DNA of 56,023 bases, filler included, from Jimgerdemannia flammicorona (lineage: Eukaryota), in the NCBI GenBank assembly GCA_003990765.1. It is 2 parts of 2 records of this genome, joined end to end, with 100 filler letters (N's around TTAATTAATTAA, not from the genome) between each part and the next. Parts side by side here need not be neighbours in the genome. Positions count along the whole stretch, not along the records: positions 28,074 to 56,023 come from RBNJ01000591.1; 1 more part is not named here. The stretch is one strand, 5' to 3'. Shown in pieces: positions 494 to 50,600 of the stretch. Position 1 is the stretch's first letter. Each line of letters starts with the position of its first letter. A program made the translations under genes and the position numbers. A model generated the notes under the pieces. That model did not search any database, had not been told where the DNA came from, and saw nothing but the letters and a program-made list of their open reading frames with translations.

Positions 494-2524
494 TGTAAGA
501 GGGTTACTTTTTAGGGTGACCATTACATAGTTCTGGAAGGGTTTTCTGGAGGTTCTGGATATTCTGGAAGACCGTTTTCTTATAGTCAAGATCAATAATG
601 TATGGAGTACATCCTCTACGCTTATTGATTTCAAGATCGGGTTGACATCTCAACCAAAGTCCTTTTTTCTGGACTAGTTCTAGATGTTCAGGATTTTCTG
701 TATTTCAGGAAGTTCAAGAAACTAAGACCAGCTTAGTTGAATTGGCGTATTGCTGCAGACAATACCCAATTAGGAAATTTCGTGACAGGGTTAGGAGTAG
801 GACCTAACAGGAAGTGGATTTACTTAAGAGTGGTTTGTGGGTTATGGAATAGGTTTATTCGCTATTCATGATATTGCTATACTAGTAGTAGTTGTGTAAA
901 GGGATATTATGGGGAAGTATTCAGGAATGTTCTTGTGTGTTTGAGTCTGAGATTCTGAGGTCTGGGGGAGGGGGTACTTATACTAGTGAGGGGCTATCTG
1001 GACTATGCTAGATATGGATGTAGCACTAAGTGCTTTGCTGAGTCAGAATGCAGTCACGTAGTACAAGTGTGATCTGATATGTCAAGAGATTGTCTGGCTG
1101 CTGAGTCAGTTCACAGTCATGTTGTACAATACTAATCTAACTATACTATGACTGCTAGGCTATTTATGGGTTTAGGCGCTGTCTGGGTAGTCTTTGATGA
1201 CATCACCATTGATTGCATCATCTCTGATGAAGTAGTCATCTAGGAATAATGGTTCGCGGATTACTTCTCCTTGTTTGCTGAGGTAATAATACATTGGGAC
1301 TTCGTCTCCATCCCATAGAATAGCATTGTCTGTCTTGTAGACTGGATAAGGTGTTGGTGGGCAAAGGATTGGTATATTGTCTTCGCTTTCATCGGATTCA
1401 CTGTCTGCATACCTTCTATTGGTTACAGCACTATGAGTTGCAGGATTGTAGTAAGCTGGTGGCTGTGGTTCATGTTGCTCATACTCAGGTGGTGGAGTGG
1501 TTGGTTCAATCTCGAGGGTTGTCTGGAGGTACAGATTGTGTTCTCCGGTCTCCTCATTGTAGTTGAAGTAGTTGGGGATGAACACAGGTTGGTATTCGTG
1601 CCAGTGGTCATTGTCTCAATAAGTCTCATATGTAGTTATGAACTGTTGTAAGTTCATTGGCAAGATTGGTGGAGTGATCAGGGTTGGCAGAGATCCTTGG
1701 CTAGAGGTCATGTTGGCATCAGAGGGATCATTGTCTTCTGTTTCATCTTCGTCAAAGTGGATTATATCATAGACATCCTTCATGGCATATCCAACTTGAG
1801 GCATTTGCAGGATATGGTCATCAGGGTGTGGGAAGGTTCTATCTGTGGTCTGGACATATTCGAGGTACTTGTGGTTGAGTTCTTGTGTCATGTCGTCAAT
1901 TTGGCCATAAGACAGGGTAGTAACCATTTTGCTGGTAGTGACTCGGAGGCGGGGAATAAAGGTGTTGTACTCATAAAAGAGTTCTCAGTGTTTGCAGGTG
2001 ATGAGCTTCTGGTGTTGAGACATCTGAGTAATGTCTGTATCATGGTGGTGTTCAACCATATCTTCCAGGAGCAGCCAATCTGGTAGTAGCTTGAGATTTG
2101 TCCAATTCGGTGGGCCTCGCTGAGCATGTTCAGAGCATTCCATTGGGCTTCCATGAAGTAGAGGGGTGCTAGGCTATGGATATTCATGAGGGGCAGAGGG
2201 GGTGTAGCTCAGTTGACAATGGCATTTCAAATGTCAGCGCGGATATGGTTGTAGATCTCAGTGGTCATGTTTGTGTGTTTGGAAGTTGTGGTTGTTGTTT
2301 GTTTTGGTTCTCTGATTCGACGCGTCTCGGTGCTTGGTATATATGCATTTGGTCCTGATTAGTAAGATTCCGTTTGTGTAAACCTTGTATTCTGTGACTT
2401 CGTATTGACTCAGCTTTGTGCACTGTGACTTTGGTTTGACTCAGCTTCGTGATTAAGCAGGTGATTTCCAGATTTGTTCAGAGGTCGCATGTAATTTTGG
2501 TGGCTTTGAGGTTGTGCACTTACA
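494..2524 (-). repeat. Long (2031 bp) 5' LTR of element D, inserted into the RT gene of element A
   Basis: Inverted termini TGTAAG (494) and CTTACA (2524). PBS on one side; element A RT stops abruptly on the other. An independent decayed copy at 55340 starts at exactly the 494 boundary. TATA-like TATAAG near 980 (minus) and TGAGTCA motifs near 1038 and 1102. Confidence 0.8.
1172..2268 (-). pseudogene. Decayed ORF of about 365 codons, unknown function, inside the LTR (U3 side)
   Basis: AAACATG start at 2268 (MTTEIYNHIRADI...). Track ORFs 1616-1927 and 1172-1585 are in the same frame, separated by one TGA. The internal stops are TGA (compatible with CGA>TGA), plus one frameshift near 2095. Confidence 0.6.
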
Positions 2525-3070
2525 ATCAGGCAGTAGTGGATCAGGGAGGTATAGACTGAGTTCATCATCTTCTGGAAGGTGGGGGGTATATTGCAGAGTC
2601 CAAAGGGTATTTGGAGGTATTCAAACAGTTTTCCTAGAGCAAGAAAGACTGTCTTTTGAATGTCCTTGGGGTCCATGGGGATCTCATGGAATCCTGCAAA
2701 GAGGTCTATACTGCTGAAGTATCTGGTATCTTGTAACTGATCCAAAAGGTCATCAATTCTGGGCAAAGGAGAGGCATCCTTTTTGGTGACTGAATTGAGT
2801 TTCCTGTAATCTACACAGAGTCTCCATCCTCCTTTCTTTGGTACAATAAGTATAGGACTGGCCCAGGGGCTGGTAGAGGGTTGGATGACTCCATTGTCTA
2901 GGAGTTCTTGAATGTGTTCTTTTTCGAATGTTTTTAAGTGATGGGGTATTCTATAGGGTTTCTGACAAATAGGTGTTGCATTTCCTGTATTTATGCTGTG
3001 ATGATATGATGGATTGTATGGCAGGTTATCATAATCAGTAGTGAAGATATCTTGATATTTATTGAGAAGT
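2525..3070 (-). pseudogene. Reverse transcriptase N-terminal half (gypsy type), truncated by the LTR insertion
   Basis: VIQPSTSPWASP...WRLCVDYRKLN...PRIDDLLDQL...PFGLCNIPPTFQ. Homology ends at CLIV|, at the LTR terminus. Confidence 0.9.
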
Positions 3071-3559
3071 TCTACTAGTTGTTGCTATTGTTGGGATGTC
3101 AATTCTTCTCCAATATTGGTGGAAGGCTTCACTGTTCCTGGGTCGCAGAGGGGCCTTTCCTTTCTTCAGAGACCTTTTGCTATTTCCTGATAGGTTTAGT
3201 TTGTAAACTTCCCTATGAGTTCGGTTGAGAAAAGGCACCAGATGTCCTATGATGGTTCCTTTCAGCAAGATGATGGTCTCCCAACTTTGGTTGGTTGCTT
3301 GGGAGTGTACTGGATTCATCTTATCAGAGAATGTATATCCCTCTATGTCCAGGTGTGGGATATCTTCCTTGGGTTCAAAGAAAAGGTTTCTGGGGTCCAG
3401 TGGTGCAAAGATTTCGAAGGTAGTTTATTCTCTAGGCTCCAGGATGAGATTCTTGTGCAGTCTGACTGGTTGCCAGTACACTTGCTGGAGAATATTCCTC
3501 TTGAGGTAGTTGACTTGAAGGAGGTATACTTCCTTCTTATCTGAACTTCCAAATCCTTT

Positions 3560-3950
3560 GGCTTATCTTGTTCCTTCAGTCAGTTCAGATACTTCTTGTA
3601 ATTGCAGGGTTCTGATCTTCATAAAGACTGCTTGGGCAATCTTCTGTCCTCTAATGATTCAGTGCCATTCTGTACTACTGTTGTGTAGAATGACCTTGAT
3701 TTCACCTATATATCCTGGGTCAATGGTTCCTCCTTCTACAGTTATTCCTTGTCTGGCAAGTCCAGACCTTGAGGTCAGTTGGATATAAGCTCCTTAGGGT
3801 GGCTGTATAGCTAATCCAGTTCTGATCATGAAGGTTTTTCCAGGCTTGATAGATTTATCCTCCAGACTGTGGAGATCATATCCTACATCCTCTGGGTGGG
3901 CTTTGGTCAGGGGTTTGGCCTTGGAATGCAGCAGGGCATACTGGGCAATG
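3560..3950 (-). pseudogene. dUTPase domain of element A pol
   Basis: Manual translation gives DVGYDLHS, TGLAIQPP, TSRSGLARQGI, GGTIDPGYIGEIKVIL and IAQAVF, the trimeric dUTPase motifs. Confidence 0.85.
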
Positions 3951-27973: not shown

Positions 27974-28073
27974 NNNNNNNNNNNNNNNNNNNNNNNNNNN
28001 NNNNNNNNNNNNNNNNNTTAATTAATTAANNNNNNNNNNNNNNNNNNNNNNNNNNNNNNNNNNNNNNNNNNNN
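27974..28073. other. Artificial contig-joining spacer
   Basis: Exactly 100 nt: 44 N + TTAATTAATTAA (stop codons in all six frames) + 44 N. Confidence 0.95.
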
Positions 28074-28137
28074 TTTTGCACTTCTCTTGTTGGTTTACTC
28101 ATTGTGGAATGCAATTTCAATTTCTCCTTTTTGCAGG

Positions 28138-43004: not shown

Positions 43005-43329
43005 GGATTAGATGATTGTTTTTATATTTCGTGAAACGGTTCAACTGATTCGAACTTTTAGACTGTTATCGAATATGATCAATCTATCCTTTTTCAATCA
43101 TTCTTTTGCGAAACTTCGCGCCTCAGAATAGTATGTTAGTTGTAATGAACTTGTGTCTTTCGAGTCCTGGTAGTTATAATAATATAACATGCATGCAATA
43201 ATGGTAGATCGTTGACCAGACTGGTCTACGAAATCAGAGAGAGCGTGAATAGGGTAGATATGAAGTATGCAACGACTGACTGACCAATGTGGGTACGCTA
43301 TGTCCTACGCCTACATTGGAACCTATATA

Positions 43330-43440
43330 TTCCTTATCAAGCTTCACATTATTGTTTAAGTCTAAATTAGGATATATACAAGTCCCACGAGGGAGCAGGC
43401 TCCCGCGCCAGCCTTTTCAGGCAGACTTTTTCCGAATAGT
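43330..43440 (-). ncRNA. Candidate omegaRNA at the 3' end of the IS607-like element
   Basis: GC-rich, CpG-retaining island at the stop codon: GGCTGGCGCGGGAGCCTGCTCCCTCGTGGGAC, with a GGGAG/CTCCC stem. Function is inferred from TnpB/Fanzor architecture. Confidence 0.45.
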
Positions 43441-44910
43441 GAGGTAATGAAGGAGAATGTTGCAAGTGCCATTGAAATTCTGGTCAAGCTTTGTCTGACA
43501 TGCCAGACAGCAAAACACCTTAGACCCGCCTAGGCCATAGTGGAGATATCCATGGCACCCACATGTCTTGGAAGTGTACTCTTCTGTGCAGAGGATGACC
43601 TGGCACCATGAGTGCTTGCATACTTTATGAATCAGATGCTGGCAAAAGTGGAAGTGTGACTATGTGTACATTGCACATGCAGTCTTAGAATAAATATAAC
43701 ATTGCTCTGTCTGATCATCTCCTGTGTATGGAACTCTGGCAAGAGAATGATATGATAGTTCTCATATAGCTACCATGTGAGCTTATGATGGCAGTCATTG
43801 ATCAAGTATTGAATATACTTGTGAATACATAGTATAATATGTTGCAACCTGTAATTAGTAAATTTATGTATATTTCCTTTAATATCTGATCTCTTTTCTA
43901 TTATTAAAAAGGCCAAAAATGATATATATATGCTAAACTGATCTATAGTACTTATGTTTATTTATCTTCTTATAAATACTATCTCACTTACTCTGAAGCC
44001 TGTCATATTTATGGCTCAGTCTATAGATATAGGTAATATCATTCTTCTCTCACTTAATTGCTAACTCACTTGAGTCATATCTAGTTATAAATATTTGTAT
44101 ATCAGAATTCAATACAATAACCCCTATACCTCTTTTATCAGATATAGGGCTTTGGCTCTTGGTCTATACATCAAAGAGCATGAGAATATAGAGATAGAAT
44201 TCACCAAGATAATTCATTATAAGCTAGCTATTATATTTAAGATTAACTGGTAGAGGCTCAGTAGACCTCATATTAGGGAGAAATACAAATTCGCTATATA
44301 ATTTCCTCCAGTACTTGAAAAGTACTACAATTAACTGAAAAAAAATAAAAATAAAAATAAAATAAAATAAAAATAATTTATTGAAAATTATTAAAACTAA
44401 TATGAATTTAATGTAAAATCAAAATGATTTTCACTTGTTGATAATTCTTTTTAAAATAAAACTACATTTGAAATATATATTTTACTATAAAGTTAGAGGT
44501 ATACTCCTTGAGAAGATTATTTATAACCTCATTATGAATGTTATATGGTATCTCCAGAATTTACTCATTATTGTTCTTAAAGTTAGAGATATTGAGATAC
44601 TGTACTCTCAGATTCTTCTTGCAGTGTTTTACACCTTCATTTTGAACTATAGTAAGATACTGATTGTATGTCTATTGTGCTGTTCTCATTTTTGATTATT
44701 AATATTATAAGCATGGTTATTTTAAGAGATAAAAAAAAAAAAAAAGGTAAATTCACCCAACACACCAATATATAATATTGTTGTGGAAAAAAAAATACTC
44801 AAGAGAACAATTATTATATCCTGAGCTTCTGCTGCTCCTCATAGATAGAAAAGAGACAGATTTTTTATACTTTAACTACTGACTTCTTAGAGATCTTAGT
44901 TCTCTTTAAT
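43417..44910 (-). pseudogene. Fanzor2 / IS607 TnpB-like RNA-guided nuclease with 2-3 introns, degenerate
   Basis: KICLFSIYEEQQKL (HTH-OrfB-like), TAQ*TYNQ, LGEFYL, RuvC-I relic VIVLNSDIQIFITRYD (from VIALDPGVRTFMTGYD), DCHHKL, IILLPEF, EEYTSKTCG, GGSKVFCC..C, DQNFNGTCNI (from DRDFNGARNI). Stop at 43417-43419. Confidence 0.9.
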
Positions 44911-45514
44911 AACTTCTCATCTCTGCTTATAGTTGGCAGCTGAGTATAGTCTGTTATATCACACTACAAAAACTGTAATAATGATAAACAGGTTCTCTAT
45001 AAATTCTCTAGTCTTGGAGTTATCAATGGTGCTAATGTTGAACTAAGAATCATAAGCTAAGTTCTGTTCTTAAAGATCCATTCTATGAGTTCTGATCCAA
45101 AATGACACAACTGGTCTTTTTGAGTAATCACTACTTCTTTGACTCCTCCTGCATATACTCATTCCAAAAGGACAACAAATCTTCTGTATTTCCAGTTAAG
45201 CCCCAAGCTAATATCACTGACAATCTCATATTCTGAGAAATACTATTGTAGTTCAGTGATTTGTCATTTAAGATCTCTTTATTGGTACTCAGAACTGACT
45301 CTGGTATAGCAGATCTTGGCCTTTTGTGTAGATTGTTATTGTTTTACAAGTTGGTTGTCACTAAACAATCTGCAGTAGAGTAAAGTCATTTGCCACTAGA
45401 GGTTCTGATGAAAGACACATGCCCTGAGACAGTCCACCACTGCAGAGTTTCAACTGAGACATCATAGGTTTGTTTGATACTACTTGTGCTTGTGTAGGTG
45501 GTATTTCGAGCCAG
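44820..45514 (-). pseudogene. tnpA: IS607-family TnpA: MerR-like HTH + serine recombinase, degenerate
   Basis: YDVSVETLQWW...IRTSSGK*LY (HTH), KICYTRVSS (catalytic Ser, 45291-45308), DLK*QI, SDISLGLNWK, VVITQKDQLCHFGSELIEWIF (from KDRLCRFG). Confidence 0.9.
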
Positions 45515-46417
45515 GTTTTTTTTTTTTTTTTTTGGAGATTTGCTGAGGAATGTACAGAATCCGCGCATGTGGTAGATTGCATTTATATGTTTTGCACGTG
45601 TTAAATATGAAAGCCAAACTGTCACTCACATATCCCTATTAATTTCCATAGGAAAGTGAGCTTTATTCTGGAACGTTCAGAAACGCTGCAACGGTACATA
45701 CGTGGAAACTACGACTCCGGATGGCTTGAGTCGGACCCAGCCATTAATATCTCGATTCCAGAGGACGCCAGAATTTAGGGAGCAGATGTTGTCTCCTGTT
45801 TGGTTATCGCAGGTCCTTCTCGAGACCCCAGATGAATGTCCATTGTTTCTGTGTCCAGATTATTGTGGCACAAGTCGCTCTATTGCTTGGGGAGGCGGGC
45901 TTGGATTAGGTTGACATGATTAACATTGTAGAGATGGATGGAATTGACGCCGCTGCCAGTGACGAAGTATGCTTGATGGACAGAAAGAAGAGTCATTGGG
46001 GAGAGGATTTTTATAGTATCTCAGGACGGAAAGGAACAAGGCAAGGCAAGGCAAGGTGAAACGAAATAAGATGAAAAGGAATAATGCCTTGCAAAACGAT
46101 AAGGAGAAGAAAAAAAGGAGCAACACAAGGCAGGACAAAAAGGGCAAAGAGGACAAAGAGGACAAAAAGGACAAAGAGCAATACTCGGCAAGGCGTATAC
46201 ATTGGCCATCAATAGCCAAAGAGGGACCCCATTAGCCATTAGCCACAAATCATTGAACGATGGACGATTTGATTGCCAAAATAGACGCCAGTGAGCAATT
46301 TCCTTTGTTTATTACTAGAACAATCCTGAAACCGTGGCGACATAGAAGTTGGCTTGACAGCCGTTGTAACAAAATTCAAAGCAGGCTCTTTGGATATGAT
46401 AGTATAAGGCTTTCTGC

Positions 46418-47605: not shown

Positions 47606-50600
47606 TCATACTCCCGCCTCGCTGCTCTCCGAGACGCACGCACACCCACATCCCGTAGGACATACACCCATGCCCTCAAACCATTCCCGCATATGATGCG
47701 TGTGCCCACCATGCCCGCAACGGATGCAGAAATTGATAGGTCCTTTTACGAGGTGATGACATATCGTGCACTTGATCTGCCGCCTGTGCCGATGGCACTC
47801 GGAACACGTATTGTCTGGCGGGCCCAGTGCCGACCCGCACTTGTAACAAAACAGTTCGACCTCCAGGCACTGCTCGCGGTCGCCAAGCAGCCACTCCATC
47901 GCGCCCTGCGGAAAAGCCGGCGTGCCGGTGCGCGGAGGCAGCGGGACCAACGGAGTCATATTGATGCCCGACTGTCCGTGGGCGGCATCCGCACTCTTGC
48001 TGTGCAGACTTCCAACTGAATTACCACGGGCACTGCCGGGGCCGACATCGACGTTGGGCGCCGACGGATTGATGTTCCAAGATTGAGACGCCGACGGGAT
48101 TACCGGGGCGACTGCCAATGCGGCATTTCTCATTTCCCGCCAAACAGATCCGGCGCTCACCCCTTGTGCGAAGCTGACGAACTTCAGCAGCTCTGCACGT
48201 CGCTCGAACAGTCCCCACCGATAGAGCATGTCTGAATAGAAGATACGATAAGCGTCGAGCTGGGGCGCTTTCACGGCATCCAGCAAGGTGACGTGATGCG
48301 AATGTATCTTCTCGTCATCAAAATCTTGTGGATTCACCATCCGAACAACGATCCCCTCGTGAGTCGTGATGATACTTCCATCCTTGCCCGCGAACATTTG
48401 TCCTTGGAACCTGTAACCGGATGGGCTTGGCCTCCTCGGGGTCACCGGGGGTGAGGGTACGTTGAAGGAATTCACACTCGACGACATGAGTGGTAGGCTG
48501 TTTTGTCGCGGTTTCACACTGCCGCTGCTCGCGAAGCCGACTGAGTGGCCGCGTTGGTGACCCTTATAATCCGAGTTGTAATTCGGCGGGTATCCTTCCT
48601 TCTCCCCAGTTCCCAGAAATGAGACTCGATTGCCAGCCATGTATGTTGCCGTATTGGTACCCTCCATGGCGACGATGTTACTATCGATTTCGTGGCCCAG
48701 GCTCAGCCCAGATCCAATGGGGGTAGGAGGTGTCAAATTATGCGAATCAGAATTAGAACCAAAGTTCATTCCAAAGTACCCCTTTGAACCAAGAGACTCT
48801 GTGCCAACGTTGGGTAGGGGCAGAGATGGAGTTGAGGACGTTCGTACTGGCGAGGGGCCAAAAATGGTTCCGTGGCCAACCTGGACAGCTGGAGTGAATT
48901 GTATATGAGATAGCTGCGGGGGTAGCGAGGGCCAAAAAGTCGCCGCCGATGCATAGTTGTATCGCTCTGGGTGGCGCATGTAGTGGTTGTTAAAGTATTC
49001 GTAGGTATTTGAATTCATATTGTTCGGGTGACCAGGTTGGGTTACGTCTGATTCGTAGTTGCGGTGGCCAGAATGTCGATCCTAGAAAGCACATATGGAG
49101 TGGATGAACAAAATTCCGAAAACAGTCATACGGGATAATAGATGATATTGCTATTTCTTACCGCCTCTCGCAACTCCAGAGACAACTTGTCCGGCGGGAA
49201 CGGCTCTCGGAATACGCAAGACAACATCGACAGCATCTGCACATCGCCGAGCTGCAGGAAATGATGAAATCTACGCCAGATTACAAGAGAAGCTAAAAGC
49301 CATTAATTTCGCGGGACAGAACTACGATGAAACAGGGTAAAATATACGTTTCATACGCACAACTTGTCCACAAGCTTTCTTCCAAGCGGATGTAGGCCCC
49401 ATTTTGCTCTTCCTAACAAGAATGCGGCGCCATTGTCAGTTGAATCCATGAACCCATCCTCCGATTTTTCATGCTGTTCCAACCCAGTACCGCTATCGCG
49501 CCGCTGCCTCCCCATCAAACCCAAATCCATCGCCAGGTTCAACATCTTGGAACGAATGTCAGTTCCGTGCAGGTACTTTTTAGCGCCCTCTGCTGCGATG
49601 GCCATTGGGTCATTCGGGTCGTCTTTGTTGCTACCGAAGAGGGGGACAACCGCCTTTAAGATTTCGGCAGCGAGCAACCAGACCTTTTGAAGATCTCGAC
49701 GTTGGTGTTCACGGCACACCCGTGCATTATGTCGACATATGGCTACAGGATCGCTACCGTAAAGGCTGGTTTGTCAAGACCACGAAAAGAGAAAATGTTA
49801 AAGGTGTCAGGTAAAAATCTTGTCCATTATATATAATTATAGTGCTCGTGCCAATGACGTCGTGTTAAGCAGAAAACCAAAAACCCTCCAATATCACATA
49901 ATTAAAGGAGAGAAATACTAACATATATTCCTTCGCCAATGCCGGATTGAATGGCATCAACTTTGACGTATCTTTGATTTCAACTTTGTGTGACACGCCA
50001 TTTTCTTTGGCAGGCTGATAAATTGACATTGGGTCATCAAGACTGTTGCCACGCGGAAGGTTCTTTCGTGGGTCATTGCAAAAGAAAAAAAAGGAGCCAA
50101 GTTATTACGGTTAGACGGACGAGGCGAAGAGAACGCAAGAATACGAACATGGAAACTTGAACTGACCTTTGGCCTGTAATAAATGGACGACATGGCTCCC
50201 GCAAATCCATATTGGTCATCCGGATCGTCATCAAATCCGGTGCCAAACCCATTTCCATTGGGAGCCGCGGTATTTCGGGGTTTCGACAACTCTGCAATCT
50301 CTTTATACTCCTCATATCGCTCATAGGATTTTGGGCGCTCATAGTAATCAGAAAATGTGGGCTCTAAGTAGCGGGAATCGTTTCCAGTCGGATGGCGAAT
50401 TCTGGCATTGTGTGTGCTAGCGGCACGTCTTCCAACTGAGCTGGGACGTGATGGCGCAGCCGAACGCGAGCTCGCATCATGAACGCGGAGGGGAGAGTAA
50501 AACGTGACGAGGCGGCCTGGAAGCGACGAGAGGATAATACTGATTAGCGGAATTGGATGTTGCGCAATGGCTCGATTGCAAACCAGTAATATATACATAA

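Follow-up and report, generated by a model that had tools for sequence, protein, structure and literature searches.

Probable spliceosomal introns in the Fanzor2 gene of a dead IS607-type transposon from the fungus Jimgerdemannia flammicorona

How does a nuclease gene of recent prokaryotic or viral ancestry come to be interrupted by what look like the introns of a eukaryotic nucleus? The question is raised by a stretch of 56,023 nucleotides (nt) from the genome assembly of Jimgerdemannia flammicorona (GCA_003990765.1), hereafter called the window, which contains a heavily mutated IS607-type element with two genes, the serine recombinase gene tnpA and the TnpB-derived nuclease gene Fanzor2. A first-pass annotation of this DNA had claimed that Fanzor2 had acquired three spliceosomal introns, and had concluded from them that the element was expressed and spliced for a long time in a fungal nucleus. 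The answer reached here is narrower, and we give it a probability of about 0.8: judging from the sequences of the window and of its relatives, the element would be a dead IS607-type copy whose Fanzor2 gene once carried spliceosomal introns of U2 type.

Three Inserts in the Fanzor2 Gene

Homology along the element was mapped by tblastn of eight intron-free relatives (P0007-P0015) against the window; they include the closest protein, P0007, which was the sole match of the first search with the window piece and comes from a contig that is either intron-less DNA or a spliced transcript. On the minus strand, the blocks of homology break exactly at three AT-rich inserts, as the first-pass annotation had noticed, and are collinear once these inserts are excised (a slash marks the junction in the sequences given below).

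43849..43942, minus strand: insert 1, very probably a decayed intron; 94 nt, ATCAGT...TACTAAT..TACAG, ends AT..AG, phase 2 in an Arg codon (AG/G)
44335..44434, minus strand: insert 2, probable intron; 100 nt, GTGAAA...T-rich tract...TTTTCAG, ends GT..AG, phase 0, KKNYQQ/LIVVLFKYW
44696..44819, minus strand: insert 3, possible intron; net 124 nt, ends AT..AA, within the overlap of tnpA and Fanzor2

For example, residues 7-48, 51-144 and 136-403 of P0009/P0012 match positions 44936-44820, 44689-44411 and 44337-43435, respectively, and when the inserts are excised and stops are written as X the window aligns with P0012 from end to end, with gaps of just 1-3 residues. The guanine-plus-cytosine (GC) content of inserts 1, 2 and 3 is 0.21, 0.10 and 0.20 (the last computed over 44692-44819), against 0.27-0.36 in the flanking exons.

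Every pairing of donor and acceptor in a range of +/-18 nt (+/-15 nt in the case of insert 2) was scored in a boundary scan that used no prior on splice sites. For insert 2 the scan fixes the length at 100 nt and leaves eight equal slides, of which 44335-44434 alone has GT..AG ends, exactly the phase 0 unit that had been described before; on the sense strand its T/(A+T) ratio is 0.67, rising to 0.82 over the last 40 nt. Insert 1 has a length of 94 nt fixed by homology and about 10 equivalent slides, among them 43849-43942 with its AT..AG ends, and a putative branch motif, TACTAAT, lies 4 nt before the terminal CAG; the description given in the first-pass annotation is thus correct, and the relatives have GT at the donor site. 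Insert 3 had been read as a span of 128 nt (44692-44819) accompanied by a small adjacent deletion, which we replace with a net length of 124 nt: excision of the latter keeps the reading of Fanzor, and likewise that of the overlapping tnpA, collinear with relatives, so that neither the longer span nor the deletion is necessary. After this excision the tail of tnpA reads EAQ-V-KNENSTIDIQSVSYYSSK followed by a stop, collinear with ETQTLDGNSAMDLQSVSRSSRK in the related locus L002. The insert contains a run of 15 T and has a T/(A+T) ratio of 0.64.

All these dimensions resemble those of the introns of the host. A flanking host gene, mapped from P0127, has ten introns of 80-240 nt, all of them GT..AG with loose donors such as GTAATA and GTGTCA, and the insert lengths of 94, 100 and 124 nt, as well as the donors GTGAAA, GTCAGT and GTATAA (the last two with their lost G restored), fit this range.

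Introns in Related Elements

Relatives were collected by a metagenome scan that returned 80 loci, most of them with a single uninterrupted open reading frame (ORF). At the site of insert 1, canonical GT..AG introns of 62-76 nt are present in five of the 71 loci that cover it (L023, L024, L025, L029 and L036), in the identical codon and phase, ...KRKRY-R(AG/G)-L.... They have the form GTAAAA...TTTACTAC...TGTAG, and in the DNA alignment their boundaries coincide with those of insert 1 and their 3' ends are similar (TAATTACAG in the window versus TAATTGTAG in the relatives), the intron sequences as such being only weakly similar to insert 1. Two protein models of Rhizophagus clarus in NCBI, P0044 and P0053, are 90-92% identical to the spliced reading of L029, and a third, P0070, is 81% identical over a longer, gapped alignment; all three run uninterrupted over the junction of intron 1 and over that of a further intron. 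The latter, here called intron X (GT..AG, 70-89 nt, located before the RuvC-I motif LDPG), is present in L022, L023, L024, L029 and L036 and is not in the window.

The relatives also have an intron within tnpA, VVVTRK/gtttga...tactaac...attag/DRLCRFG, again with GT..AG ends, at the following positions:

L001, 823-895: tnpA intron
L002, 618-682: tnpA intron
L008, 1981-2045: tnpA intron
L018, 724-788: tnpA intron
L029, 929-999: tnpA intron
L036, 561-631: tnpA intron

Neither the window nor the other loci matching tnpA have this intron, and nearly all of those loci read through the site; in tblastn, the two tnpA exons of L002 match the window in four collinear blocks with no insert at that position. 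It is clearly homologous between a Diversispora-like and a Rhizophagus-like clade, and since it is missing from the window, L010 and L022, which lie between those clades in the tree, intron loss or recombination is implied. The 95% identity of P0021 (Diversispora epigaea) to L018 makes the intron-bearing clades look Glomeromycota-like. Intron content varies by lineage in this family of elements.

The introns of the relatives combine GT..AG ends with TACTAAC-like branch sites, features typical of the spliceosome. These features bear on the possibility that the inserts are self-splicing introns of group I or II, akin to the IStrons of bacterial IS607 elements, for which there is a precedent in the group I introns of IS607-family elements described in the available part of PMC10690162. 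Lengths of 94-124 nt are far too short for such introns, and a scan of 43100-45800 against Rfam with E values up to 1 matched no family; we consider this reading effectively excluded by size and by the scan. Introner-type elements, known in some fungi and algae, generate introns by inserting copies that supply their own splice sites, and three short, AT-rich inserts with splice-like ends could be taken for copies of an introner or of a sequence resembling a miniature inverted-repeat transposable element. It is very improbable that they are, because the inserts are dissimilar to one another and to the rest of the window beyond low-complexity A/T runs, none of the three has target-site duplications or terminal inverted repeats that are evident in the sequence, and insert 1 is shared by descent with diverged relatives in which the intron sequence is only weakly similar.

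In a maximum-likelihood tree the window falls, on a long branch with skewed composition, within a clade of 16 rows that has a support of 95 in the Shimodaira-Hasegawa-like approximate likelihood ratio test (SH-aLRT). L016 is placed as its sister, and the clade with intron 1 follows; the approximately unbiased (AU) test does not reject a single clade of the window and the four intron-1 loci contained in the tree (p 0.13), the fifth, L025, being below the coverage cut-off.

Several observations weigh against taking the inserts as introns. The sister locus L016 lacks intron 1 and has instead, six codons upstream, a 78-nt GT..AG unit in phase 0 (at about 3718-3795, delimited by eye), an arrangement that requires loss, sliding or parallel gain. 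T is not enriched in insert 1, where T/(A+T) is 0.46, and in insert 3 any choice of boundary leaves one transversion unexplained, affecting either a splice site or the codon of a conserved Trp. Judging from the chance levels in AT-rich blocks of the window, ends of the form [GA]T..A[GA] are found within 9-10 slides at 27-28% of positions (3.2% at one fixed position), and for this reason the AT..AG and AT..AA ends of inserts 1 and 3 are not significant alone. Moreover, an intron-like insert is present in 0/73 relatives that cover the site of insert 2 and in 0/68 that cover the site of insert 3, and collinear flanks would equally follow the excision of any simple insertion. From this evidence one could argue that inserts 2 and 3, and with less likelihood insert 1, represent AT-rich DNA gained after the death of the element by slippage, simple-sequence expansion or small insertions, with splice-like ends arising by chance; insert 2 does resemble other simple A/T-rich tracts in the window. 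Such an origin would leave unexplained why five relatives have canonical introns at the position of insert 1 and why all three lengths fall in the host intron range, and it would have to produce, at a position fixed by homology, the exact GT..AG ends of insert 2, which occur within 8 slides of a 100-nt span at 2.7% of positions and are consequently informative on their own, together with a pyrimidine tract on the sense strand. No target-site duplication fits either, since the coding bases that remain in the flanks are exactly as many as in the ancestor. We therefore judge gain after death unlikely.

The 78-nt unit of L016 is flanked by the near-repeats GGTAAAGTA and GGTAAGTAG; it may have arisen by sliding of an intron, by duplication, or by a parallel gain within a linker rich in Lys and Arg. 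Readings of this insert as a duplication, or as a 75-nt intron that would leave a stop, were dropped.

The claim that Fanzor2 acquired spliceosomal introns consequently holds to a different extent for each insert. Insert 1, by virtue of its shared site, is very probably a decayed spliceosomal intron inherited with the element; it would go back to a common ancestor with the Rhizophagus-like elements, and its donor would have changed from GT to AT later on. Insert 2, with exact ends, a T-rich 3' end and host-like length, is probably an intron specific to the lineage of the window in which GT..AG is still intact. Insert 3 is plausible as a third intron, with about even odds, in a stretch read in two frames and with both splice-site G's now A; it had been called the weakest of the three, and remains so with ends expected at 27% by chance and no counterpart among 68 relatives. 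The Fanzor2 gene would then have carried ordinary U2-type introns before this copy decayed, and we infer that the inserts were actually spliced. The first-pass annotation had held that copies lacking the inserts would speak against its claim; lineages without inserts 2 and 3 do exist, and being distant families, not copies of the window element, they neither refute nor confirm it. DNA transposons carry their own introns along. Because intron 1 is common to elements of other fungi, its gain in this host is not required: prolonged splicing in the nucleus of Jimgerdemannia does not follow from the inserts, since the transposon may have brought in an intron that it had acquired elsewhere.

Mutational Decay of the Element

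Is the loss of splice sites that this interpretation requires compatible with the way in which the element decayed? At 159 conserved protein columns the window has 57 differences, of which 53 need only C>T or G>A changes, two only the reverse changes and two other ones. Among obligatory G's, 29/64 (45%) are now A, and among obligatory C's 10/42 are now T, with zero transversions. The same regime appears at 595 nucleotide sites conserved among twelve close relatives, where C>T affects 35/104 and G>A 58/140 positions, compared with 14/192 for A>G and 9/159 for T>C. The G>A decay proposed in the first-pass annotation is real, and the loss of three of the six splice-site G's across the three inserts is to be expected when 45% of obligatory G's have become A.

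A strong bias toward C>T and G>A, concentrated in repeats, recalls the repeat-induced point mutation (RIP) of Ascomycota. The host is different, belonging to Mucoromycota and not to Dikarya, and the preference for CpA and the positive indices of RIP are not seen: by context the changes amount to 6/9 and 6/9 at CpG, 15/30 at TpG and just 4/21 for C>T at CpA (small samples), TpA/ApT is 0.99, (CpA+TpG)/(ApC+GpT) is 1.23 and the composite RIP index is not positive. Classic RIP was set aside as the cause of decay on the basis of index and sequence context, and the pattern can be read equally well as deamination of methylated cytosine. The available passages of PMC7928374 do not bear on the Jimgerdemannia genome.

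Besides the block of the element (43700-45530), the window has AT-rich blocks at 10-13 kb, 18-21 kb, 26-27 kb and 35-38 kb. Two of these are decayed retrotransposons, with RVT_2 and retroviral SH3 domains at 10-13 kb and RVT_1 at 18-21 kb. An open ORF resembling reverse transcriptase, Ty3/gypsy-like by eye, is located at 2410-3084 on the minus strand.

Overlap of tnpA and Fanzor2

Insert 3 and the tnpA intron of the relatives lie where the two genes of the element overlap, which raises the question, already posed in the first-pass annotation, of how overlapping genes are translated from a eukaryotic mRNA. The genes in the window are the following:

43417..45465, minus strand: long-form pseudogene of Fanzor2/TnpB; opens with ATG at 45465, stop codon at 43419-43417, interrupted by three inserts and about three frameshifts
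44637..45514, minus strand: pseudogene of the serine recombinase tnpA; opens with CTG at 45514-45512, stop codon at 44639-44637, reading frame shifted near 45370 and 45040

The frame of Fanzor/TnpB is open upstream over almost the whole of tnpA, in its +1 frame, so that the two genes of the window overlap over 44637-45465 (minus strand). This arrangement was seen over loci L001-L079 and L082-L160, with the first ATG of the nuclease frame near the start of tnpA and an overlap mostly of 560-780 nt. In 33 metagenome loci the +1 frame inside tnpA contains 2 stops versus 358 in the +2 frame, over 6554 codons; in named cyanobacterial IS607 loci it contains none in 64 of 65, versus 541 in +2, the 24 stops of the remaining locus, L094, being a frame artefact. 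The extension thus encoded reads MTSQLKHC...RKRPRSA...PFWNEY...WLP and recurs in the models of R. clarus as well as in Fanzor copies without tnpA. In the window it is recognizable as MMSQLKLC..., HKRPRSAIPES... and FWNEYMQEESKK followed by two stops, and it resembles P0044/P0070 and the ORFs of L001/L002. It includes a basic motif like a nuclear localization signal (NLS), RKRPRSA, which is HKRPRSA in the window. Given that tnpA lies almost wholly inside the nuclease gene, the NLS-like N-terminal extension of Fanzor2 would be encoded by overprinting on tnpA. The two upstream frameshifts of the window shift both frames together. By arithmetic, the tnpA intron of the relatives has phase 0 in the tnpA frame and phase 2 in that of the extension, and introns in the overlap, including insert 3 of the window, would serve two frames at once.

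In the intron-bearing fungal clade, tnpA has no ATG start; in its place stands a conserved CTG GC[TA] with A at -3 and G at +4, which was found in 8/8 of the sequences examined (the window at 45514-45512, L001, L002, L008, L018, L029, L036 and L010). The first ATG follows 49-55 nt downstream of CTG, in the +1 frame, and opens the Fanzor frame (45465 in the window). L019 has ATG at the equivalent position, as does L021 with an in-frame stop just after it, and tnpA begins with ATG in the five loci with an intact start from a metagenome clade of 38-42% identity, which is equated with cyanobacterial IS607 by identity level only. This layout suggests what leaky scanning from a near-cognate start would need: a CTG in strong Kozak context followed by the ATG of Fanzor might allow both proteins to be made from one nuclear mRNA. 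The whole scenario, in which tnpA is nested in the nuclease gene throughout the IS607 clade from which Fanzor2 arose, from cyanobacteria to fungi, its ATG has turned into CTG in the intron-bearing copies of fungi (the window, Diversispora-like and Rhizophagus-like ones), and CTG to ATG leaky scanning in fungi would give both proteins from one spliced mRNA, is tentative, and we hold it at somewhat less than even odds.

Protein models from Diversispora epigaea (P0008, P0029 and P0121) and Gigaspora margarita (P0018) show internal duplications or joins of the tnpA and Fanzor frames, and the overlapping, intron-bearing layout appears to confuse gene predictors. The frame join of P0018 lies near the site of insert 3 and was regarded as an artefact of gene prediction, not as evidence.

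The word overlap is absent from PMC3627910 and PMC10711439 and concerns only RNAs in the available part of PMC10530073, even if genome annotations or other papers may show the arrangement. A disordered N-terminal region with NLS is reported for ApmFNuc in the accessible text of PMC10530073.

The Element and Its Host

The element as a whole, and the non-coding stretch at its right end, have the following extent:

43307..45700, minus strand: IS607-type eukaryotic element (tnpA and Fanzor2), hypermutated by C>T/G>A changes; left end approximate
43307..43416, minus strand: conserved 3' non-coding stretch from the Fanzor stop to the right end, presumed guide-RNA (omega/fRNA) scaffold

Its GC content is 0.30, against 0.46-0.48 in the flanks, and a blastn comparison of the window with itself returned the self-match alone, with no second copy in the 56 kb. 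The right end is sharp at 43307, where ...TGTAGGCGT is conserved in 9/9 aligned sequences (the window and eight relatives); beyond it the sequences diverge, with the exception of L024, whose contig stops there. The left end lies near 45700, since homology to L001 extends to about 45699. DNA identity of the 43307..43416 stretch with the sequence downstream of the stop codons of L023, L024, L025, L015, L002, L008, L016, L001 and L011 is 62-75%, the match to L011 spanning 30 nt only. By analogy with the part of PMC10530073 that is available, this stretch is presumed to be the scaffold of a guide RNA.

The Fanzor ORF of the window matches the Pfam domain TNB (PF07282, E 1.4e-7), and its tnpA matches Resolvase (E 4.9e-7), the homologue in L002 consisting of a MerR-type HTH followed by Resolvase. 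The reading of Fanzor2 contains 12 in-frame stops, counted from 45020 downstream, and the copy is catalytically dead, with LDPG changed to LNSD and DRD to DQN, so that Asp positions of RuvC are now Asn. The window reads CTEEYTSKTCGC, in agreement with the Fanzor2 rule as quoted from PMC13565253. The protein family has 1141 members at E<=0.001, including models from Diversispora, Gigaspora and Rhizophagus and a 'putative transposase R104'. The intact relative P0012 has the domains HTH_OrfB, OrfB_IS605 and TNB, and its best structural match is the solved mimivirus 'TnpB-like protein L79' (9b0l, E 6.7e-22). The window element belongs to Fanzor2/IS607 by descent, yet as a dead copy.

The element sits between a host gene and a gene resembling acyl-CoA-synthetase, the latter named by eye. 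The former includes a minus-strand ORF at 47606-49081 with 100% identity to a protein that NCBI lists for Jimgerdemannia flammicorona (Endogonales, Mucoromycota). The DNA of the window is nuclear and fungal, and the element thus resides in a eukaryotic genome. The argument against contamination made in the first-pass annotation is sound, given that the introns of this nuclease gene, recently derived from prokaryotes or viruses, rule out a bacterial contaminant. A run of N is present at about 28026-28075 of the window.

Comparison with Known Systems

Intron capture by Fanzor genes has been published already (Jiang et al. 2023, Sci Adv, PMC10530073), which lowers the novelty that the first-pass annotation had assumed. 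In the accessible portion of that paper, captured introns are read as a sign of long adaptation to eukaryotic hosts, on the basis of intron densities from gene prediction across families, and the giant-virus Fanzor2 copies tested are without introns. The element described here shares with those genes a TnpB-derived nuclease with captured introns and a basic NLS-like N-terminal motif. As far as the accessible text goes, it differs in that intron positions are mapped, one of them is common to diverged lineages, introns are present also in the tnpA of relatives and the window copy is a pseudogene. Individual intron positions for Fanzor2/IS607 are given neither in the accessible text of PMC10530073 nor in the one supplement available, and other supplements may list counts per gene. 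The word intron is absent from PMC10432273, PMC3627910 and the Yoon et al. preprint, and occurs once in PMC3673617, with regard to group II introns. Among literature titles on Fanzor2 introns, or on IS607 together with spliceosomal, none points to mapped introns of Fanzor2/IS607 (titles only).

The closest organization is that of eukaryotic IS607 elements (IS607EU), such as the mimivirus ISvMimi/ApmFNuc and that of the solved TnpB-like protein L79 (9b0l), which likewise have tnpA followed by Fanzor2 and a conserved 3' non-coding region up to a defined right end, and lack obvious terminal inverted repeats. A further likeness, according to the quoted part of PMC13565253, is the Glu residue lying six residues before the zinc finger (TEEYTSKTCG). 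In contrast to the giant-virus copies tested, the Glomeromycota-like relatives carry introns, as the window copy probably does, and the window copy is catalytically dead. Cyanobacterial IS607 elements with tnpA and tnpB (Microcoleus, Hormoscilla and Moorena among others; L082-L160) have proteins about 35-51% identical to P0012, keep the gene order and likewise have tnpA embedded almost completely in the +1 frame of tnpB. They are prokaryotic, however, so that introns are not expected (these loci were not scanned for inserts), and in the five loci with an intact start from the 38-42% clade, equated with them by identity level only, tnpA starts with ATG instead of the CTG of the fungal clade. 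The locus L081 (2340 nt), titled as a metagenome-assembled genome (MAG) of Rummeliibacillus, has 68% identity to the fungal-type P0012, versus about 40% for true cyanobacterial relatives, and is probably a eukaryotic contig that ended up in a bacterial MAG through binning.

Evolutionary Implications

In evolutionary terms, the presence of introns in a nuclease gene recently derived from prokaryotes or viruses means that the element has been in eukaryotic nuclei for long enough to be reshaped around the spliceosome. What is added here to the known capture of introns by Fanzor genes is the mapping of their positions, one of which is shared by copies of Endogonales and Rhizophagus-like copies, together with clear differences between lineages in presence and absence that extend to the introns of tnpA. 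The family can thus be used to study how new introns originate and are lost in a mobile gene. If the overlap and the CTG start work as outlined above, they would bear on the way in which eukaryotic IS607 elements express two proteins and on the origin of the N-terminal nuclear-targeting region of Fanzor2; leaky scanning would then answer the question of how the overlapping genes are translated, and these elements would make the repeated gain and loss of introns tractable in a transposon derived from prokaryotes.

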